Shown: in pieces, positions 7,143-16,506 of the stretch | Layout of the letters: every line of letters starts with the position of its first letter | How positions within the stretch are numbered: the stretch's first letter is position 1 | Program-made: the position numbers and the translations under genes | Notes under the pieces: generated by a model | The model's database searches: none | Told to the model about the DNA's origin: nothing | The model's input: only the letters and a program-made list of their open reading frames with translations | Origin: Minisyncoccota bacterium | GTDB taxonomy: Bacteria; Patescibacteriota; Minisyncoccia; Phycocordibacterales; Phycocordibacteraceae | Assembly: GCA_035627655.1 (NCBI GenBank) | Contig: DASPLI010000001.1 | Span: forward strand, 398,217-462,216 | DNA length: 64,000 bases | Direction of reading: 5' to 3'

Positions 7143-10100
7143 TCAACTAAGCCGCACGTATCGGTCTTTGACCGCTTTCCCAGGATGACGGTAGTAGAGG
7201 ACAGGGATAAGGATGAGGGTGAGCACCATAGACCAGGCAAGGCCGAACATGATGGCGAAGGCCAGGGGACCCCAGATTTCAGAGGCAAACGAGAGCGGGA
7301 TCATACCAACGACGGTTGTGATGGTGGTGAGGACAATCGGACGGAAGCGCGAGGAAGCTGCTTCGATCACTACTTCTTCAAGCGAATGGTCCGGCTGTTC
7401 GCGTCCAATACGCGCGATCGAGTCCATGAGAATGATCGCGTGGTTGATGATGACGCCGGCAAGCGCGATCACGCCGAGCATCGACGGGAATGAGAGCGGA
7501 GCGCCGGTAATCATCAGGCCGACAAGCACGCCGATAAGGGAAAGCGGAATGATGGAAAGCAGGTAGAACGAGTGGCGGAACGAGTTGAACTCAAGCACGA
7601 GAATACAAAGCATGAGCGCTGCACCTGCAAGCAGGGCAATACCCATTTCCGCAAATGATTTATTGACGTCCTCGCTCTCGCCGCCCACTTTGAGAGCAAC
7701 GCCTTCTGGGAGTCCGGCTTCGCGGACGCGCGTCTGGAGATCCGCAGAAATCTGCAGCGCGTTTGCGCCTGCTGCCACGTCGCTTGAGACGGTCGCGATG
7801 CGCTCGCCGTCTTCGTGGCGGATAACGCTCGCTGCCGGCTCATACGTGATCGTTGCGATAGAGGACAGCGGCACGAATCCGCGAGTGCCCGGGATAAGGA
7901 GCGCACGCACCGCATCAATCGTTGCGTGTGTCGTTTGCGACGGATCAGCGTAGGCGGCATTGAGATCAAGCTTCGTGCGAATCTCAATGTCCTGCTCTCC
8001 GGAGCGAATTGAGGCAGCCTTGGTGCTATAAAGTGCGCCGCGCAATATTTCAGACACGCTTGCCGGTGAGACGCCAAGCGATGCAGCCTTTGCGCGGTCA
8101 AGCGTCACGACAAATTCCGGCGCGTCGTTTCGCGTCGAGGTGGTGACGTTTACCGCTCCTGGCATGTCCGCGAGAATACGCGCTGCCCCTTCTGCCGCTT
8201 CGGTAAGCGATGCCATATCTTCGCCGCTAAAGGTAAGCGAGATTGGCGTACCAGACGGCGGGCCACCTGCGGGTTCTGAGACGCGAAGCGTTGCTGAGGT
8301 GATATCGGCAAGGCGTTCGCGCAACTGTGCAACCACTTCCGAGCTTGGCTTATGGTCATCGGCGAGGTTCACGGTGATGTTTGCCGTCTTGCTGCCGCTA
8401 CCGCCCGAGGCGCCGAAGTAGCTTGCTGCGCCGACTTCAGATACGAAGGAGGCAATCTGCGGATCTCCATAAAGGCGCTCTTCAATCTCACGCACAGCAA
8501 GGTCGGTCGCTTCAAGCGTGGATCCCTGCTGCTTTTCTATATCGATATAGATAAAATCGGAATTTTCACCCGGGAAGAAGATCGTTTTCACTGCGCCGGT
8601 TGCCGGGAGAATGATTGCAAGCACGAAGAGACCTACCATGCTCCAGATGAAGCGGTTGGCTTTCTTTGGATTGTCCAAGAGGTCCTTGAGGAATCGCTCG
8701 TACCAAGCACGTGCCTTGCGGTTGTATTCCTCCTGCAGGTGCTGGGTTTTGGAGTGCGACGGGCGGATGATGTACATCGCAAATAGCGGCACGAGACCAA
8801 GCGCGACGAAGATGGAGGCAAGCAACACGAAAATAACCGTAAACGGAATAGATGCGACGAACTTGCCGACAATGCCGGAGAGGAAGAAGAGCGGGACGAA
8901 TACCGCGATTGTGGTGAAGGTGCCGGCAGTCAGCGGCGTTGCGTACTCGCGAATGGCGTTGATGGCCGCAGCGCGCTTGTCGCCGGTTGCGATAAAGCGG
9001 GTATGGATCGCCTCAACAACTACGATGCCGGTATCCACCAAGATGCCGATTGCGAGAATCAGGGAGAAGAGGGAAATGAAGTTGATGGTATTGCCGGAGG
9101 CATAGATGCCCATGAAGGCAATAAGGAACGAGAGCGGAATGGAAATTGCTGCGGCGATTGATTCGCGCCAGCCGATCGTTGCGATGAGCATCAGCATCAC
9201 GAGCGCAACCGTCTCAAAGCCAACGCGCGAGAGCTCGGTGAGATCATGCTCGACGTACTCCGCCGCGTCGTAGGAGATTACCGTCTGCGTACCGGCAAGA
9301 ACGGAGGACTCCAGTTCCTTGAGCTTTTCTTTTACCGCGTTGCCTGTATCGACCACATTGCCGCCGCGGCTCTTGAAGACGGAAAGGGTGAGGGCTGGCT
9401 GTGAGGGTGCGCCATTTACGGAGACGCGCGAGAAGCTGGTCGGATCTGAGAGGCCATCTACCACGTCTGCAACATCGCCGACGCGAATCGGGGTGCCGTT
9501 TGGTCCGGCAATCGGAACGTTGCGGACGTCATCGGTGTCCGTGATACCGGCATCAAGGCGAACGGCGTACGTAATGTCGTCAACGACGATCGTGCCAGCC
9601 GGGCTTCCCGTTCCCGCGCTCATAAGGGCGCGCGTTACGTCTCCAAGCGAAAGGCCATACTGACGCAGGCGCTCCTGGCGTACGATGACCTGCACTTGGC
9701 GATCGCGAACGCCCGAGAGGCGCACTTCGGAAATTCCGGCGAGCCGTTCGATCTCGTCTTTCACCTCAATGCCGACCGCAGTCAGCTCCGCAGGAGAGAA
9801 GTCGCCTGAAATAGAAGCGATCATGATCGGCTGATCTGCAAAGTTCACGTCAGTCACGATCGGGTCTTCCGCATCTTCCGGCAGCTCGCCCTGCACCTTC
9901 TCAACTTCGTCCTTCAAGAGCTGGATGGACGCTTCGATATCTGCGGAAGCGGAAAATTCTACTGAAATAGAGGACACGCCCTCGCCGGACGTCGAAGTCA
10001 CTTTCGATACGTTTTCAACGCCAAGAATGCGGTCCTCGATCTTGTCGGTCACTAGGCGTTCAACGTCCTCGCTTGAAGCGCCCGGGAGAATCGTTGTGAC

Positions 10101-10241
10101 GATGCCAACCGGAATCTGAATCTCCGGCGAGCTTTCCTTTGGAATGGCAAGCATCGCGATGAAGCCGCCAATCGTCAGCACGATGGTCAGGAGAATCGTG
10201 AAGTGGTGCCGATCAAGGAAGAAAGTCCAGAACCTAGTCAT
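7143..10241 (-). CDS. RND family efflux transporter permease (AcrB/HAE1-like)
   Basis: 1032 aa. N-terminus FFLDRHHFTILLTIVLTIGGFIAMLAIPKESSPEIQIPVGIVTTILPGASSEDVE is typical of RND pumps. Twelve TM helices and two large loops. Confidence 0.9.
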   Translation of the reverse strand: MTRFWTFFLDRHHFTILLTIVLTIGGFIAMLAIPKESSPEIQIPVGIVTTILPGASSEDVERLVTDKIEDRILGVENVSKVTSTSGEGVSSISVEFSASADIEASIQLLKDEVEKVQGELPEDAEDPIVTDVNFADQPIMIASISGDFSPAELTAVGIEVKDEIERLAGISEVRLSGVRDRQVQVIVRQERLRQYGLSLGDVTRALMSAGTGSPAGTIVVDDITYAVRLDAGITDTDDVRNVPIAGPNGTPIRVGDVADVVDGLSDPTSFSRVSVNGAPSQPALTLSVFKSRGGNVVDTGNAVKEKLKELESSVLAGTQTVISYDAAEYVEHDLTELSRVGFETVALVMLMLIATIGWRESIAAAISIPLSFLIAFMGIYASGNTINFISLFSLILAIGILVDTGIVVVEAIHTRFIATGDKRAAAINAIREYATPLTAGTFTTIAVFVPLFFLSGIVGKFVASIPFTVIFVLLASIFVALGLVPLFAMYIIRPSHSKTQHLQEEYNRKARAWYERFLKDLLDNPKKANRFIWSMVGLFVLAIILPATGAVKTIFFPGENSDFIYIDIEKQQGSTLEATDLAVREIEERLYGDPQIASFVSEVGAASYFGASGGSGSKTANITVNLADDHKPSSEVVAQLRERLADITSATLRVSEPAGGPPSGTPISLTFSGEDMASLTEAAEGAARILADMPGAVNVTTSTRNDAPEFVVTLDRAKAASLGVSPASVSEILRGALYSTKAASIRSGEQDIEIRTKLDLNAAYADPSQTTHATIDAVRALLIPGTRGFVPLSSIATITYEPAASVIRHEDGERIATVSSDVAAGANALQISADLQTRVREAGLPEGVALKVGGESEDVNKSFAEMGIALLAGAALMLCILVLEFNSFRHSFYLLSIIPLSLIGVLVGLMITGAPLSFPSMLGVIALAGVIINHAIILMDSIARIGREQPDHSLEEVVIEAASSRFRPIVLTTITTVVGMIPLSFASEIWGPLAFAIMFGLAWSMVLTLILIPVLYYRHPGKAVKDRYVRLS

Positions 10242-10247
10242 GGGCGG

Positions 10248-11765
10248 TTAGGGCGCAAGCCGGACGCGTTCGCCTTCGGCAAGTCCGCGCGCGTCAGAGA
10301 CGATGCGCAGATCCTGCGCAAGCTCAGTTTTGATTTCAATGCGATCGCCAAGCACATTGCCGGTTTCGACGACGGTCGCAACAAGGCGGTTATCAGGGTC
10401 AACGCTAAAGATGACGCGGTCGTTTGCGCGCAGCTTCACTGCAGCAAGCGGCAAGTAGAGCGGTCCATCAGACGGCGTCGCGCTCTCAAGGGCTTCAGGA
10501 AGATCGACGCGAACAGATTGTCCGTTGACGAGGCCGCTTCCTTGGTCAGCAGAGATGTGAACTTCAATCTGCTTCGTGATCGGATCGAGTGCCGGAGCGA
10601 TCGACGTGATGACGCCGGCATGTTCGCCGTCGATAAGCACGCGCATGCCGACCGAGAGGGATTCGCGCCCTTCTTCGGAAACGTACGCAACGATTTCAAG
10701 CGCGGAGTTTTCCGCAACGGTCGCTACGTGCGAGAGGGAAGAGACATAGTCGCCGACGCGAAACGGGAAGAAGTTTACGGTTCCGCCGATGGGCGCGCGG
10801 ATGAGCGTCTTCTCAAGGTTTGCTTCCGCGAGTCGAAGCGAGCCGAGTGCCTGCTTCACTGTTGCATCAGCACCAGCAGTTGCGCCGGTCGAGCCGCTGC
10901 GCCAGGTGCTTATTGCGCTCGTGATGCTTGCGTTTGCCGCGTCTACGGTCGAGCGAGCGGTAATGACGGCAGAAACCTGCGCGTCTGTCGCGTTTGAATC
11001 GGGCTGATTCACCTCGCGAGAGAGTTCCGTCAAAAGGTCAGTGAAGTGTGTAAGTACGGTGCTAGCTTCGTTGAGATAGCTTTCCGGATCGCGCGCATCG
11101 ACGGAATCCAGGTTGCGGCGCCAGGCGTTCATATCATCGGTCAGCACTTCGCGTTTTATGGAAAGGCGCGTATCTTCGTCGGTGCTGAATGCTGGCGCAG
11201 GGCCGTAGGTGCTTCGGCCGCCAAAGAGCTGGTCGATGTACACCTCAAGCGCGGTATCCAGGTCGGTGAACGCGCTCACATAGGCATTCTTCGCAGATGC
11301 TTCTTTGTCTTCTATAGACACGCCGCTGCGCGCTGCAATTGCAGCGTCGTATGCGCCTTGCGCCTGAAGGAGCGCCGCTCGCTCACTGGCGTTCTCAAGC
11401 TCAGCAAGAATAGAGCCAGCGCCGACGCGACCGCCAAGGCTCGTATGTACGGCAGTTACAGTGCCGCCATTCTCCGCGAAAATAGCCGCTTCTGAGCGCG
11501 CGCGGACGCTACCGAACATGGTGCCGCTGGTGGCGTTTCCAGAAAGTTCCGCAACGGTGCGTAGTGATACGGCGCGGAGGTTCTCACTCGTTTTCGGAGA
11601 CTCGGCATGCAGGAACGCAAAAAGGGCGATGATGAGTGCGACGAGGATCGCGCCAATAATCCACTGGAAGATAGGACGAAGTGCGCGAAAACGGCGCCAA
11701 ATACCCCCAAGGGTTTTTGCGACAACAGAAACGGCTCCGCGGAGCGCGGCGAGAATTGATTGCAT
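10248..11765 (-). CDS. RND efflux periplasmic adaptor (membrane fusion protein, HlyD-like) with long helical hairpin
   Basis: Lies immediately upstream of the RND permease (6-nt gap). The track ORF begins at a TTG at 11891 and would overlap the divergent mltG gene. I place the start at the ATG at 11765 (MQSILAALRG...), which leaves a short cytoplasmic tail, TM helix IFQWIIGAILVALIIALFAFL, and lipoyl/beta-barrel-like C-terminal segments. Confidence 0.65.
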   Translation of the reverse strand: MQSILAALRGAVSVVAKTLGGIWRRFRALRPIFQWIIGAILVALIIALFAFLHAESPKTSENLRAVSLRTVAELSGNATSGTMFGSVRARSEAAIFAENGGTVTAVHTSLGGRVGAGSILAELENASERAALLQAQGAYDAAIAARSGVSIEDKEASAKNAYVSAFTDLDTALEVYIDQLFGGRSTYGPAPAFSTDEDTRLSIKREVLTDDMNAWRRNLDSVDARDPESYLNEASTVLTHFTDLLTELSREVNQPDSNATDAQVSAVITARSTVDAANASITSAISTWRSGSTGATAGADATVKQALGSLRLAEANLEKTLIRAPIGGTVNFFPFRVGDYVSSLSHVATVAENSALEIVAYVSEEGRESLSVGMRVLIDGEHAGVITSIAPALDPITKQIEVHISADQGSGLVNGQSVRVDLPEALESATPSDGPLYLPLAAVKLRANDRVIFSVDPDNRLVATVVETGNVLGDRIEIKTELAQDLRIVSDARGLAEGERVRLAP

Positions 11766-11833
11766 ATTGAAAAAAATTATAACATGCGAGTGATTTTTTA
11801 TCCATAGCGCACCTCTATACGGTATACTTGGTG

Positions 11834-12871
11834 CAAATGAGCATGCGTGTGCATGAAAAAATGCGTTCTTTACTTGCCTCACGAGAGGCAATGCTTGGCA
11901 GATGGGGGCGAAGAATCGCCCTGGTGTTTGGCGGTGTCGCGATGGTTGTCGTACTGGTGACCCTTGGATTTGCGCATTTGTTTGGTCCGCCGGGCGTCTA
12001 CGAGAAGCGTCCGGAGTTCATCGTGCATCCAAATGATTCGGTTGCCTCAATCGGCAAGGCGCTCGAAGAGCAGGGGTTTGTGCGCTACGGCGGCGCGTTT
12101 GCGGTGGCGTACCAGCTGACCCGTGGGGAAACCAGTATTCGTCCGGGTGGATACACACTGACGCCGGATATGGACGCGCTTGCGGTTGCTAAGAAGCTTG
12201 GCGAAGCACCCTACCTTTCTTGGGTGGTTATTCCGGAGGGTCGACGCAAGGAGGAAGTTGCTGCTCTGCTCGCCGAATCGCTTGGATGGACTGCAGAGCA
12301 AAAGGAGGAATGGCTGCAGGCAACGGTCGCAAGTTCAACACCGTCAGACGGCGTCTATTTTGCTGACACCTATCTTATTCCGTCAGACCAAGAACCGGCA
12401 CAGGTCGCCGCTCGTTTGCGCGATCGTTTTCAGGAAGCTGTTGCGGTATACGCTGCTGACATAACCAATAGCCCGTTTTCGTACGAGGAAATCATCACGC
12501 TCGCGTCATTGGTAGAGCGAGAGGCGGCTAAGAACGATAAGGCGCTCGTTGCCGGCATTCTCGTCAACCGCATTAAGCGCGGCATGCTCTTGCAAGTAGA
12601 CGCAACACTCCAATATATAGAAGGAAAGGAGGGGGCGTGGTGGCCTGCACCCGATCCTGATGATAAGGATCACGAATCGCCCTATAACACGTATCGCCAC
12701 ACCGGACTGCCACCCGCGCCAATCGCAACGCCAAGTCTCGCGTCAATTGAGGCGGTACTCGCACCACAGAAGACAAGCTGCCTCTACTATCTCCATGACG
12801 AGAACGGACGCATACACTGCTCCACGAACTACCAAGCACACGTCGCAAACGTAAACCGCTACCTTCGATAG
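11834..12871 (+). CDS. mltG: endolytic murein transglycosylase MltG (YceG family)
   Basis: N-terminal TM followed by a YceG-like domain (VVIPEGRRKEEVAALL, LASLVEREAAKNDKALVAGILVNRIKRGMLLQVDATLQY). The track starts at a GTG at 11828; the first ATG is at 11834. Confidence 0.75.
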   Translation, partial: QMSMRVHEKMRSLLASREAMLGRWGRRIALVFGGVAMVVVLVTLGFAHLFGPPGVYEKRPEFIVHPNDSVASIGKALEEQGFVRYGGAFAVAYQLTRGETSIRPGGYTLTPDMDALAVAKKLGEAPYLSWVVIPEGRRKEEVAALLAESLGWTAEQKEEWLQATVASSTPSDGVYFADTYLIPSDQEPAQVAARLRDRFQEAVAVYAADITNSPFSYEEIITLASLVEREAAKNDKALVAGILVNRIKRGMLLQVDATLQYIEGKEGAWWPAPDPDDKDHESPYNTYRHTGLPPAPIATPSLASIEAVLAPQKTSCLYYLHDENGRIHCSTNYQAHVANVNRYLR

Positions 12872-13576: not shown

Positions 13577-13608
13577 AAAAACGCCGCTGGAACATTCCGG
13601 CGGCGTTT
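13577..13608. terminator. bidirectional intrinsic terminator
   Basis: aaaaacgccgc-tggaacattcc-ggcggcgttt sits between the convergent methyltransferase (+) and trmB-like (-) genes. Confidence 0.65.
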
Positions 13609-14374
13609 AGTATTTCTCTCCCGCTTCCCACAACGCCGAGAAGAGCGCGGTGAGCATTGCGTGCGCTTCTTTTGAGGTGATGAGCACCGCAGAGGGTTTT
13701 TTGAACGAGGAGATGATCGCTACTTTATCGTCAAAGAGAATCAGCATCGATTTGAATTTTCCTTCCATAGACGCAGGCATGAAGCGGGGGTTTCGCAGCT
13801 CCTGGTCTTCTGCGGAAAGTCGGCGGTCGCTGTCTTTGCGCTCCCACAGTGTTCGAGAAACGATGCCGCGTTGTTTACGCGTCTTGAGGTAGTAGGCGGC
13901 ATAAGCAGGATCAAAGTCGCGCAGGAAGTTATCAACGGGCGCGATGATGTCCCAAGCGCGCGAGCGGCAATACAGCGCCTCATCAATGACTGCCTTCACG
14001 CCTTCGATGCCGTCATACTGTGCCGCTTCCACCTGCTTGCCAGCGGCGCTTGGCGAGAGTTCAGACAAAAGAGGAATGAGTGCGTCGATTCCCGCTTCGC
14101 GCTTTTTCAACTCTTCGCGTTCGTTTCGGACCGTTTCTCGCAAATGGTCCGGAGACGCCATAGAGAAACGAATCTTTCCGTTTTCTTTTCGCTCGGCTAC
14201 CAGTCCCTTTTGCGAGAGGGTAGAGAGCGCGTGATACACGGTCGGACGCTTGATAAGCGTTTCTCGCGCCAGTTCCTGTGCGGTCAGCGGACCGTTTTTA
14301 AGGCCAGCCAGATAGATCCGGCTTTCGGTTGTCGTGAGTCCCAAGGCCTCAAGCGAGGACTGCAGGTTCTTCAT
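13607..14374 (-). CDS. TrmB-family transcriptional regulator (winged HTH, sugar-responsive family)
   Basis: 255 aa. N-terminal wHTH LGLTTTESRIYLAGLKNGPLTAQELARETLIKRPTVYHALSTLSQKGLV, plus a C-terminal effector-binding-like domain. Confidence 0.7.
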   Translation of the reverse strand: MKNLQSSLEALGLTTTESRIYLAGLKNGPLTAQELARETLIKRPTVYHALSTLSQKGLVAERKENGKIRFSMASPDHLRETVRNEREELKKREAGIDALIPLLSELSPSAAGKQVEAAQYDGIEGVKAVIDEALYCRSRAWDIIAPVDNFLRDFDPAYAAYYLKTRKQRGIVSRTLWERKDSDRRLSAEDQELRNPRFMPASMEGKFKSMLILFDDKVAIISSFKKPSAVLITSKEAHAMLTALFSALWEAGEKY

Positions 14375-14459
14375 TGCTGGGGAGGATACGGCAGAACGGG
14401 TTATATGTCAATGATGGATCATAATGAAATAGCAAGTAAATACACTCTATTTATAAGCT

Positions 14460-14479
14460 GTTTATATATGATTATAAAC
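14460..14479. promoter_or_regulatory. candidate TrmB operator: inverted repeat GTTTATA-N6-TATAAAC in the divergent promoter region
   Basis: 7-6-7 palindrome gtttatatatgattataaac inside the AT-rich 180-nt region between the trmB-like gene (-) and the CoaB-like/aldolase gene (+). A TTGACA at 14493 follows. Confidence 0.4.
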
Positions 14480-14555
14480 ATGCTTTGACAGTATTCCTTG
14501 CACGCTGCATGCTCGTTCACAGAGCAAGGACGCTCTTTATAGAAGGAGATACGGT

Positions 14556-15815
14556 ATGGACCGCAAACAAGTCCACGTTGTCGGCGGCGGCACGGTCAGT
14601 CATGTTCGCCCGCATCTGGCGCTGTCTGCTCCCGCGTATGGCGGGACGGCGCGCAAGCTTGCAGAACTTTGCAAGGCGCACGACGAGACCATGGGCGTGC
14701 AACTGCACCTCACCAAGATGGCTGACCACACGAGCCGGGTTGAAACGAATGACGACCTGCGCGAGTTTGCGCTCGCGCTTGTCGACGATCCGAGAACGAA
14801 GATCGTTTTCTGGAATCCCGCGGTCGTCGATTTCGACGGTCACGTCGGCAACGGCGTTGAAAAGAAACGCCTCCGGACGACACTTCCTGACGGGAAGACC
14901 GTCGGCTACTACGACATGGTCATCACGCCGACCGACAAGATCGTTTCGATCTTGCGGCAAGGCAGTGAGGGGCGCACGCCGCGGAAGGACATCTTCCTGG
15001 TTGCGTTTAAAGCGACCGCCGGCGAAACCGCTGAAGAGCAGTATCGCCAAGGTCTCGACATGTTGAAACGGGTGAGTGCGAACCTCGTGCTCGCTAACGA
15101 CGTCGAAACAGGACGCAACATGATCATCACGCCGGAGGAAGCTTGCTACAGCGATACCTTCGACCGTGATGCGGCACTTCGCGAACTGGTCGAGATGGCC
15201 TACCTCCGCTCGCACCTCACCTTTACGAGGAGCACGGTGGTCGCAGGCGAGCCGGTGCCATGGGATTCGTCCTTGGTGCCTGCAACGCTGCGTACGGTCG
15301 TCGACTACTGCATCGGCAAGAGCGCGTACAAGCGCGTTCGCGGCGTCACTGCCGGCCACTTTGCGGTAAAGCTCGACGAGCAAACCTTCCTCACCTCACG
15401 CCGGAAGACGGACTTCAACGATATGAAGAACGTCGGACTCGTGAAAGTGAAGACCGATGGCCCTGATTCGGTGATTGCGTACGGCAGCCGCCCCTCTGTG
15501 GGCGGACAGTCGCAGCGGATCGTCTTCAAGGAACATCCGGACACGGATTGCATCGTGCACTTCCACTGTCCGAAGAAGGAAGGATCCCCGGTGCCGACCG
15601 TCTCGCAGCGCGAGTACGAGTGCGGCAGCCACGAGTGCGGCAAGAACACCTCGCGTGGTCTTACGCGCTTCGGGAATCTGTACGCCGTCTACCTCGACCA
15701 TCACGGCCCGAACATCGTCTTCTCGAAAGACATTGATCCTCAGGAAGTTATCGACTTCATCGAGGAGCACTTCGACCTTTCGCTGAAGACCGGTGGCTAT
15801 CAGGTCGCTGCGTAA
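14556..15815 (+). CDS. fusion protein: N-terminal CoaB-like (DFP/phosphopantothenate-cysteine ligase fold) domain plus C-terminal class II aldolase/adducin-like domain
   Basis: RBS ggagatacggt before the ATG. Three N-terminal stretches align to conserved E. coli Dfp CoaB-half blocks. First, VHVVGGGTVSHVRPHLALSAPAYGGTARKLAE aligns to [32 protein letters not shown]. Second, KIVFWNPAVVDFDGHV aligns to NIFIGCAAVADYRA. Third, FLVAFKATAGETAEEQYRQGLDMLKRVSANLVLANDV aligns to [32 protein letters not shown]. The C-terminal region (GHFAVKLDEQTFLTS, SRPSVGGQSQRIVFKEHPDTDCIVHFHCP) fits the class II aldolase pattern GNxSxR / FLITPSG / KPSSE / AVVHTHS. Confidence 0.6.
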   Translation: MDRKQVHVVGGGTVSHVRPHLALSAPAYGGTARKLAELCKAHDETMGVQLHLTKMADHTSRVETNDDLREFALALVDDPRTKIVFWNPAVVDFDGHVGNGVEKKRLRTTLPDGKTVGYYDMVITPTDKIVSILRQGSEGRTPRKDIFLVAFKATAGETAEEQYRQGLDMLKRVSANLVLANDVETGRNMIITPEEACYSDTFDRDAALRELVEMAYLRSHLTFTRSTVVAGEPVPWDSSLVPATLRTVVDYCIGKSAYKRVRGVTAGHFAVKLDEQTFLTSRRKTDFNDMKNVGLVKVKTDGPDSVIAYGSRPSVGGQSQRIVFKEHPDTDCIVHFHCPKKEGSPVPTVSQREYECGSHECGKNTSRGLTRFGNLYAVYLDHHGPNIVFSKDIDPQEVIDFIEEHFDLSLKTGGYQVAA

Positions 15816-15907
15816 CTTCTTGATCGCCCCCGCTTGGGGGCGATCTCTTTTATTCGTACGCCCGCTATGGCATTGTGGCGGCAGTCGTTCTTCACAAGGA
15901 GCACTAC

Positions 15908-16468
15908 ATGACTATCACCTGGCCGCTTCCCGGACTGGATGTGGCGATACCGCAAGAGCCGGATCATCCTGGCAGCTTTGCGGCGGTACGAAAGTACGAC
16001 ATCCATACCGGCGTTGATCTGTATGCACCAGAAGGGCAGCAGGTCGTCGCGATCGAGGACGGCGTCGTTGTCTTTATCGATCGGATGTTCACTGGCGGCG
16101 AAGATACGCCCAAGGGCGAAGACGGAGAACCGGTGTGGCTGCAGACCGCAGCCATCGGCATTTCTGGAAAGTCGGGCGTCATCCTCTACGGCGAGCTCAC
16201 GCTGGTCGAAAAAGACTCGTGTGGCTTTGATCTCGATCTCGGGTCGCCCTTCAAAGCGGGCGACGTGATCGGCACCGTGAAGCGGGTCCTCAAAGACAAG
16301 CCGGACGGGCGAACATTCCAAAATCCTGCGGAAAGTCCGTCCATGCTCCACCTCGAGCTGTATCGTCCGCGCTCGCCGTATGCCGCCTGGTGGCGTCACG
16401 GCGAGCCGCGTCCGAGAGGGCTTCGCGATCCGACCGAGCTTCTCCTTAAGGCTCGTGAACGGATGTAG
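15908..16468 (+). CDS. M23/LytM-like peptidase domain protein (variant second motif)
   Basis: Start at the ATG preceded by AAGGAG with a 6-nt spacer; the track used a GTG at 15875. Contains HTGVDLYAPEGQQVVAIEDGVVVF (HxxxD motif). In place of the canonical HLHxE there is MLHLE, so one His is replaced. Confidence 0.5.
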   Translation: MTITWPLPGLDVAIPQEPDHPGSFAAVRKYDIHTGVDLYAPEGQQVVAIEDGVVVFIDRMFTGGEDTPKGEDGEPVWLQTAAIGISGKSGVILYGELTLVEKDSCGFDLDLGSPFKAGDVIGTVKRVLKDKPDGRTFQNPAESPSMLHLELYRPRSPYAAWWRHGEPRPRGLRDPTELLLKARERM

Positions 16469-16474
16469 TTCGTT

Positions 16475-16506
16475 GAACCCCGCACTCCAGTGCGGGGTTC
16501 TTCATT
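16475..16506 (+). terminator. intrinsic terminator after the M23-like gene
   Basis: gaaccccgcactccagtgcggggttc followed by ttcatt. Confidence 0.65.

Follow-up and report, generated by a model that had tools for sequence, protein, structure and literature searches.

A mobile protein family joining a CoaB-like domain to a class II aldolase fold, with a possible role in acyl activation and coenzyme A metabolism

A 64,000-nucleotide stretch of a Minisyncoccota bacterium genome (contig DASPLI010000001.1, positions 398,217 to 462,216; hereafter the window) encodes a 419-aa protein that combines a CoaB-like domain with a class II aldolase-fold domain, and whose only database annotation is 'class II aldolase/adducin family protein'. 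Judged by its sequence, this fusion protein is neither a standard CoaB nor a standard aldolase. Our tentative reading is that it may be a bifunctional enzyme of an uncharacterised mobile family, in which nucleoside triphosphate (NTP)-dependent acyl activation would be combined with an interchangeable second module, the substrate probably being a metabolite of the pantothenate/coenzyme A (CoA) pathway. We hold the general mechanism with moderate confidence and the assignment to CoA with less. The gene and its two domains lie as follows; on re-checking the open reading frames (ORFs), all coordinates and motifs given in an initial annotation of the window were correct.

14556-15815, plus strand: ORF of the 419-aa fusion protein, with AAGGAG 7 nt 5' of the ATG.
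14556..15215, plus strand: N-terminal CoaB-fold domain (residues 1-220), the putative NTP-dependent activating module.
15258..15815, plus strand: C-terminal class II aldolase-fold metal domain (residues 235-419), plus the stop codon.

Both domains pass their Pfam cut-offs: Aldolase_II (PF00596) scores 35.2 bits (cut-off 22.2), over profile positions 16-93 of 183 only, and DFP (PF04127) scores 24.2 bits (cut-off 22) over nearly the whole profile. Both folds were modelled by AlphaFold2 from 43 homologues, with a mean predicted local distance difference test score (pLDDT) of 86.6. A profile of the fusion family matches the CoaB structure 2gk4 (E 4.6e-6), and genuine CoaB proteins encoded in related loci match the N-terminal domain (N-domain) with phmmer E-values of 3e-7 to 9e-5; a PDB search with the single protein sequence returned noise only, and a viral fold search in BFVD gave nothing significant. 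Homologues of the fusion number 3,291, the best 120 of which are full length at 61-75% identity; clustering at 50% yields 532 clusters, and the fusion is retained down to about 33% identity. It is neither a one-off nor an assembly artefact. No solved chain found with Foldseek spans both domains (best query-normalised TM-score 0.40), and literature searches revealed neither this architecture nor the pairing of the N-domain with an ArgC-like protein reported below. The initial annotation's proposal of a CoaB-like/class II aldolase fusion, and of its being undescribed, is borne out. The linker between the domains (window 15210-15260, residues 219-236, SHLTFTRSTV...W) is almost invariant among close homologues and is also the least confident part of the model (residues 224-227 have a pLDDT below 50), which may point to mobility combined with functional importance.

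Residues were mapped onto E. coli Dfp numbering for the N-domain and FucA numbering for the C-terminal domain (C-domain), and conservation among divergent members was assessed in 45 members at 28-55% identity. The N-domain keeps the Gly-rich loop G10-G11-G12-T13 as well as the GFK and ANDV motifs, and its A89 and D92 align with A276 and D279. In CoaB, this Asp (D281 in Mycobacterium smegmatis) coordinates a cation together with the CTP triphosphate, which is bound by the K-X-K-K loop, and R207 and N211 of the M. smegmatis enzyme (R206 and N210 in E. coli) sit in the active site (PMC7794376). D92 is invariant in alignment A1 and at least 90% conserved in alignment A2. The K-X-K-K loop is not kept; the flap reads (K)xxxR105-L106-x-[TS], where conservation is confined to R105 and L106, in an uncertain stretch of the alignment. 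R206 and N210 are absent as well, L21 and A25 taking their places (ungapped register, anchored on G214 = G29), and position 25 is Ala in 35 and Ser in four of 43 sequences. Mutant studies in E. coli assign both CoaB residues to the second half-reaction. The SSGK loop is replaced by A-P-A-Y-G, with A27 and Y28 aligned to S212 and S213; with this loop altered, as the initial annotation had noted, the protein is not a standard phosphopantothenoylcysteine synthetase (PPCS). The divergent members share an invariant core of H20, R134, E194 and R218. The N-domain is a CoaB homologue that keeps the nucleotide scaffold and the cation Asp but not the residues of the cysteine-ligation half-reaction.

In the C-domain, H335, H337 and H383 correspond to the FucA metal ligands H92, H94 and H155 and are invariant even at 28-55% identity. 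The catalytic acid/base E73 corresponds to G316, a Gly that is invariant in alignments A1 and A2. The phosphate pocket of FucA (N29, T43, G44, S71 and S72) aligns with H268, R283, K284, S314 and V315; one Ser (S314) is kept, and the basic replacements could still bind an anion. The invariant core of the divergent members comprises T265, G267, H268, R283, G316, H335 and H337, followed by Q351, C356, G357, C361, H383 and G384. The C-domain has a class II aldolase fold with a His3 metal site, an invariant Cys pair and an Arg/Lys-rich pocket at the phosphate site. A fixed second zinc site of the Cys3His type (C338, C356, H359 and C361) was considered and ruled out, as C338 and H359 vary in divergent members. 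Aldol or epimerase chemistry on phosphosugars, which the initial annotation had offered, is unlikely because the catalytic Glu is missing from the aldolase-fold domain, and nothing indicates a sugar acid as the partner in its suggested ligation.

The N-domain also occurs by itself. A stand-alone form (phrog_35624, function unknown) is found in Caulobacter Bertelyvirus phages and in Pseudomonas Otagovirus phages, where it adjoins genes for ThyX, ribonucleotide reductase and glutaredoxin. A split version of the fusion in phages was ruled out, in that the gene after gp053, the stand-alone N-domain gene of CcrBL9, does not encode a C-domain. A sister family lies on replicons of cultured Betaproteobacteria (Variovorax, Burkholderia ubonensis, Paraburkholderia and Novimethylophilus), and in all four of these bacteria the next gene, overlapping the N-domain gene by 4-8 nt, encodes an ArgC-type semialdehyde dehydrogenase (L256:8959-10531, L257:7001-8493, L258:7001-8490 and L259:7001-9035). 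These partners retain the NPGC and HRHxPE motifs, and the ArgC-like protein of Variovorax, whose N-domain partner is WP_068677301.1, scores above the argC_other equivalog cut-off. In enzymes of the ArgC type, a cysteine accepts an activated acyl group, which is then reduced; from this we infer that such a group is what the N-domain provides. No ArgC-like gene is present in any fusion-bearing locus examined, and the ArgC-like protein and the aldolase-fold domain are mutually exclusive at the loci examined. The pairs are set in megaplasmids or conjugative regions with TraN, TraG, ART-PolyVal, ClpP-like and HAD_SAK_2 genes. In Novimethylophilus (L259), the pair is followed by an M23-like gene whose product is 55-57% identical to proteins following the fusion. 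The label 'phosphopantothenoylcysteine decarboxylase' that the Prokaryotic Genome Annotation Pipeline (PGAP) gives to the stand-alone N-domain gene looks wrong.

The initial annotation found no other CoA-pathway genes near the fusion gene. That is true of the window, but in related loci genuine CoaBC, CoaB with CoaC, or a fused phosphopantetheine adenylyltransferase and dephospho-CoA kinase (PPAT-DPCK) adjoins the fusion. Of about 240 loci, 8 have genes for CoaB, CoaC, CoaBC or PPAT-DPCK/CoaD-like proteins near the fusion, and in six of these the CoA gene is at position +1 or -1:

L060 and L069: CoaBC, divergent from and adjacent to the fusion (424 bits, cut-off 220).
L077 and L078 (Saccharibacteria): gene order fusion-CoaB-CoaC-TrmB.
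L075: gene order TrmB / NUDIX-CoaB-fusion-c2.
L146, 6792-7961 (IMGVR_UViG_3300017766_004476, a 113-kb viral contig): fused PPAT-DPCK that ends 40 nt before the fusion.
L083: second PPAT-DPCK, 2 kb from the fusion (100 bits, cut-off 103).
L107: CoaD-like gene, 7 kb from the fusion (90 bits, cut-off 103).

By our own estimates, about 0.2 adjacent CoA genes would be expected by chance, and the positional concentration has a p of about 0.006 after allowing for related loci. The L146 PPAT-DPCK is above both NCBIfam equivalog cut-offs; a reciprocal search with it among viral contigs retrieved only itself, this being a single-sequence query that reaches close relatives only. The Caulobacter Bertelyvirus phages carry, with the stand-alone N-domain, a genuine PPAT (137 bits, cut-off 103). 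The idea that this PPAT is the nicotinamide mononucleotide adenylyltransferase (NMNAT) of an NAD-salvage pair, with Nampt 4 kb away, was rejected on its scores (CoaD model 137 bits, above the cut-off of 103; NMNAT models 34). In one of the Caulobacter phages (C2, L260:1-5489), genes for nicotinamide phosphoribosyltransferase, an ATP-dependent DNA-ligase-like protein and the genuine PPAT lie within 5 kb, and an RNA ligase gene is close to them. Other phages with CoaD-like genes are Lak phages, Brevundimonas/Caulobacter jumbo phages, Myxococcus phage Mx1 and Microcystis phage MaAM05.

The neighbouring CoA genes span steps 2-5 of the pathway; no type I PanK, PanC or PanD was found in L001-L168 or in the 64-kb window, in a search that did not extend to types II/III PanK or archaeal PoK/PPS. 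The CoA genes adjoining the fusion in related loci point back towards CoA metabolism, and neighbours for steps 2-5 without a recognisable step-1 enzyme suggest that the family may provide the entry step. The fusion co-occurs with genuine CoaB and is therefore not the PPCS of the cell.

In the mechanism that we favour, the N-domain would consume an NTP in converting a carboxylate into a mixed anhydride (acyl-nucleoside monophosphate or acyl-phosphate) and would hand the acyl group to the second module, which in the window protein would be the metal/Cys aldolase-fold domain. This domain, which has a His3 site and an invariant pair of Cys residues, may serve as an alternative acyl acceptor or processor. 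Because enzymes of steps 2-5 but no recognisable step-1 enzyme adjoin the fusion, the most economical guess is that it would supply 4'-phosphopantothenate or 4'-phosphopantetheine, possibly by ligating phosphopantoate and beta-alanine, which would mirror CoaB chemistry, or by functionally replacing pantothenate kinase. A fully developed form of this guess, which we consider unlikely, would make the family an unrecognised entry point into CoA synthesis: a CoaB-derived maker of 4'-phosphopantothenate or 4'-phosphopantetheine, either a novel type of pantothenate/pantetheine-phosphorylating enzyme or the equivalent, in bacteria and phages, of the phosphopantothenate synthetase of archaea. The gene would then allow phages, conjugative plasmids and the host-dependent bacteria of the candidate phyla radiation (CPR) to bypass the feedback-controlled pantothenate kinase of the host, and the aldolase-fold and ArgC-like modules would be alternative ways to produce or process the acid.

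The fusion family is largely phage- and plasmid-borne and is also present in CPR bacteria. In the genome collection it has 95 loci, mostly in Saccharibacteria, Paceibacterota and other CPR groups, the others lying in metagenome-assembled genomes (MAGs) labelled Alphaproteobacteria, Polyangiaceae, Bdellovibrionales and others. In IMG/VR, at least 147 loci are confirmed as viral, and several of their contigs measure 200-570 kb; among deposited phages, LR756511.1 (595 kb) has the single full-length copy. Copies from phages and from CPR bacteria are intermingled within one sequence cluster at 60-70% identity, so the family moves horizontally. The copies linked to the M23-like gene (L057-L069) are 83-97% identical to each other under the MAG labels Alphaproteobacteria, Micavibrio, Bdellovibrionales and Arsenicibacter, and bins labelled Methanosarcinales, Methanobacterium and Actinomycetes contain further copies of the fusion; this spread of labels suggests mis-binned contigs or very recent transfer.

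Neighbours were compared by calling and clustering ORFs in 166 loci. A Pfam batch scan of 132 non-redundant +1/-1 neighbours returned 78 families, almost all of them once, which ruled out a consistent phage operon partner. Phage neighbours include NUDIX, CYTH, Macro, ADP-ribosylglycohydrolase, HD_4, His_Phos_1, ThyX, RNA ligase, Thg1 and Tad6 proteins. In L002 (= L017; JAFDWS010000002.1, a 1.36-Mb 'Armatimonadota' contig), a gene for Tad6, an inhibitor of type I Thoeris, lies directly upstream of the fusion (L002:5677-5982), amid many small unknown ORFs and HNH and NUDIX genes that resemble a prophage or phage-derived island. In the regions L060:8964-12346, L069:10052-11374 and L054:8430-11714, a URC1-type protein (GTP_CH_N + GTP_cyclohydro2) is encoded near the fusion; L060 and L054 also encode uracil phosphoribosyltransferase, and L060 has a DUF1826 protein as well. 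The cluster, which resembles one for pyrimidine degradation (URC-type), is near both CoaBC and the fusion in L060 and L069.

Several points weigh against acyl activation for the CoA pathway. Counted as independent events, the 8 of about 240 loci with CoA genes come to about 4-6; a further 80 metagenome loci, taken as a second sample, yielded no new CoA adjacency; and no CoA gene lies within 20 kb of the fusion copy in the 595-kb phage. The changes at KxKK, R206 and N210 could mean that the N-domain has a different chemistry, phosphoryl transfer for instance, or a binding role only. An ArgC-type reductase has no obvious place in CoA synthesis, and the Betaproteobacteria with the N-domain and ArgC-like pair would be expected to own a normal CoA pathway. 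In phages, the gene mostly lies in islands of mixed content, with nucleotide, RNA-repair and anti-defence functions (NUDIX, CYTH, Macro, ADP-ribosylglycohydrolase, HD, Tad6, ThyX and RNA ligase), and the mobile-element contexts suit a role in counter-defence or host takeover about equally well. Such an enzyme of mobile elements would modify or remove a carboxylate-bearing host molecule (such as an immune signal, a nucleotide derivative or a peptide) and have nothing to do with CoA supply, and CPR bacteria would have domesticated their copies from phages. The abundance of viral copies, their interleaving with CPR copies, neighbours such as the Thoeris inhibitor Tad6, NUDIX, Macro, CYTH, ADP-ribosylglycohydrolase, the HD_4 hydrolase and histidine phosphatase, and the location of the N-domain and ArgC-like pair amid TraN, TraG, ART-PolyVal and ClpP-like genes on conjugative replicons all fit this explanation. 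We nevertheless judge it somewhat unlikely: neither the fusion nor the M23-like protein matched a PADLOC model (a library of defence models, not anti-defence ones), no neighbour is consistent across phages, the CPR copies sit amid housekeeping genes with their own regulator and the local base composition, and the CoA genes at +1/-1 would be left unexplained.

Could the fusion instead be a non-orthologous CoaBC, whose CoaB-like domain makes 4'-phosphopantothenoylcysteine and whose aldolase-fold domain replaces the flavin-dependent decarboxylase CoaC? The architecture does parallel Dfp (ligase plus decarboxylase), the aldolase II superfamily includes decarboxylases (the best NCBIfam match, a weak one, is 3-oxo-tetronate 4-phosphate decarboxylase), fusion plus PPAT-DPCK in L146 and L083 would cover steps 2-5, and one source labels a homologue 'phosphopantothenoylcysteine decarboxylase'. 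This makes for a rather improbable explanation all the same. Five loci (L060, L069, L075, L077 and L078) already have genuine CoaB, CoaC or CoaBC, which would render the fusion redundant; R206 and N210 of CoaB are missing; and the N-domain is also found alone or beside an ArgC-like protein. To decarboxylate the cysteine moiety, an enzyme has to oxidise the thiol, for which His3 metal sites have no known precedent.

The remaining features of the locus are listed here in order of position.

13607..14374, minus strand: TrmB-like winged-helix regulator of 255 aa (PF01978 match), divergent from the fusion gene.
14459..14480, no strand: 8-6-8 palindrome, a candidate operator, in the intergenic region between the TrmB-like and fusion genes.
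15822..15845, plus strand: intrinsic-terminator-like hairpin immediately 3' of the fusion gene (10-bp stem with 8 G-C pairs).
15908..16468, plus strand: probably cytoplasmic M23/LytM-like protein of 186 aa (PF01551 match), zinc ligands kept and catalytic histidines replaced.
16484..16498, plus strand: weak terminator-like hairpin 3' of the M23-like gene (5-bp stem; consensus match only).

The flanks are ordinary, with an RND transporter, MltG/YceG and an S-adenosylmethionine methyltransferase, and TypA/BipA downstream. Recent acquisition in this genome was considered and rejected: the locus has the base composition of its flanks and gives no compositional signal. Between the convergent methyltransferase and TrmB-like genes lies a strong terminator-like hairpin (13579-13608; 13-bp stem with 8 G-C pairs) that probably serves both. 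The RND (ACR_tran) transporter and its upstream partner of 505-547 aa occupy 7143-11891 on the minus strand, 2.7 kb from the fusion, and RND homologues within about 6 kb of the fusion also occur in L001, L053, L060, L067, L069 and L081; this proximity may be functional or due to chance.

The M23-like ORF starts at 15908, 92 nt 3' of the fusion gene, and the deposited gene call concurs. Its match to PF01551 is marginal (28.9 bits, cut-off 28.7), and its orthologues cover the whole profile at 37 bits. They follow the fusion in 10 other loci, which belong to a separate clade, and form one orthologous group with the window protein, to which they are 40% identical. H33 and D37 (HxxxD) and H148 (the second His of HxH) are invariant in the group; M23 structures, zoocin A among them, align with the HxxxD region, and H148 was assigned by eye. 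The catalytic YxH is replaced by an invariant Y94-G95-E96, and H-L-H-F-E by M146-L-H148-L-E150, the latter read by eye, as HMMER alignments end before the motif. The translation has no N-terminal hydrophobic segment by eye. The M23-like protein with a degenerate HxH motif that the initial annotation reported is thus real, and is a true recurrent partner; the shared transcript that it proposed is doubtful because the strong terminator-like hairpin at 15822-15845 (4-nt loop, tail TCTTTTATTC) separates the two genes. A small protein that we call c2 (109-145 aa, motif EGRRLRW...HNLxxHPL, no Pfam or NCBIfam match) is encoded 3' of the fusion or the M23-like gene in 35 loci (e.g., L062:1830-2225 and L075:4253-4582) and is absent from the window. 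We regard the M23-like protein and c2 as probable optional accessory parts.

The same M23-like orthologous group follows both the fusion and the N-domain and ArgC-like pair, MltG is encoded upstream in the window, and PBP1-type genes flank the fusion in L057, L058 and L066. These neighbours would fit a modification of peptide or peptidoglycan-precursor carboxylates, in which the N-domain activates a stem-peptide or C-terminal carboxylate and the M23-like protein binds or trims the peptide; acid activation followed by ArgC-type reduction would yield a peptide aldehyde. We regard this as quite improbable, in that no more than about 13 loci have the M23-like gene, its product lacks both catalytic histidines and, by eye, shows no N-terminal hydrophobic segment, and most loci have no cell-wall genes nearby.

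The TrmB-like protein matches PF01978 (E 5.4e-15) over residues 8-75 only, which contain the winged helix; beyond about residue 140 it has no Pfam, NCBIfam or PDB sequence match, and no sugar-binding effector domain was detected. TrmB equivalogs score 23-32 bits on it, against cut-offs of 500-650. Homologues lie immediately upstream of and divergent from the fusion in 37 of the 166 loci, at gaps of 58-240 nt, and in 6 of 80 further metagenome loci (43 in total, all cellular); none of 80 viral loci has one beside the fusion. The intergenic region of 181 nt is AT-rich and contains the only occurrence in the window of TGTTTATA-N6-TATAAACA, where 0.01 would be expected by chance; the 7-6-7 palindrome of the initial annotation is therefore real and, at 8-6-8, longer than it had stated. 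The closest TrmB-linked locus (L001) has a near-identical TGTTTATA-N5-TATAAACA at a similar distance from the ATG, L032 has TGTATATA-N5-TATATACA, and palindromes at other loci differ from that of the window. Control by the TrmB-like gene is plausible because the divergent arrangement recurs and the closest such locus has a candidate operator that is almost identical; in CPR bacteria, a dedicated divergent repressor may bind the palindrome and control the fusion gene. That the regulator responds to carbohydrates, as also claimed, has the family name as its sole basis. The two-step sugar-acid pathway built on it, with an aldolase, epimerase or dehydratase acting on a phosphosugar under a carbohydrate-sensing TrmB regulator, has in its favour the domain families as named, the TrmB-type helix-turn-helix and the retained S314, and is very improbable given the invariant Gly at the Glu73 position, the lack of a recurring sugar-metabolism gene nearby, the undetected sugar-binding domain and contexts that indicate CoA and nucleotide metabolism instead.

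If NTP-dependent acyl activation with an interchangeable second module is correct, a common 'class II aldolase/adducin family protein' of phages, plasmids and CPR bacteria, so far given generic or misleading names only in databases, would be a new acyl-activating enzyme, and two folds that have been studied in depth would gain a further type of reaction. The enzyme would possibly fill in for an early step of CoA synthesis that is missing or takes an alternative form. It would account for the way in which large phages and episymbionts with reduced genomes obtain a universal cofactor or interfere with it, and would correct the PGAP label on the stand-alone domain. Culturable relatives are at hand in replicons of Variovorax, Burkholderia and Paraburkholderia, in the Caulobacter phages CcrBL9 and C2, and in Pseudomonas phages of the phiPsa374 group.

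The N-domain has in common with CoaB/PPCS (PF04127; E. coli Dfp 181-406, S. pneumoniae 2gk4, M. smegmatis 6TH2) a Rossmann-type fold and the match to the family hidden Markov model (HMM). It differs in having Leu/Ala at Arg206/Asn210, APAYG for SSGK and R-L-x-T/S for KxKK, in its own invariant H20, R134, E194 and R218, and in its fused partner. The C-domain likewise shares fold, HMM match and His3 with the class II aldolase/adducin family (PF00596; FucA, RhaD, AraD, MtnB, the decarboxylase OtnC and pyruvic oxime dioxygenase). Compared with FucA, however, Glu73 gives way to an invariant Gly-Gly followed by QSQR, Asn29 to His and Thr43/Gly44 to Arg/Lys; an invariant ECGSxEC stands where FucA has ATFGTREL; and the C-terminal helices of class II aldolases are shortened to a conserved KTGGY tail, with about half of the Pfam profile matched.

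As a two-domain protein with a CoaB-type domain and a genomic association with CoA genes, the fusion resembles Dfp/CoaBC, but its CoaB-like domain comes first, its partner is a metal-dependent aldolase fold rather than the flavin mononucleotide-dependent CoaC, and it is found beside true CoaBC, not in its place. ArgB-ArgC, LysZ-LysY (LysY being of the ArgC type) and carboxylic acid reductases activate an acid and then reduce it. The sister family has a comparable layout, its N-domain gene being translationally coupled to an ArgC-type gene with the catalytic Cys/His motifs kept, and the N-domain gene occupies the place of the acid-activating kinase or adenylation step. Here, by contrast, the activator is of the CoaB type and not an amino-acid kinase or ANL adenylase, and the window protein has an aldolase fold in place of the reductase. 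With archaeal PPS/PoK and PanK types I-III, the fusion may share non-canonical synthesis of 4'-phosphopantothenate as a hypothetical functional analogy, drawn from gene context and CoaB-like ligation chemistry, with no relation in sequence or fold. The fusion family is not a categorically new system, both of its folds being well known; it is a new family and a new combination of modules, with catalytic residues altered in both domains.

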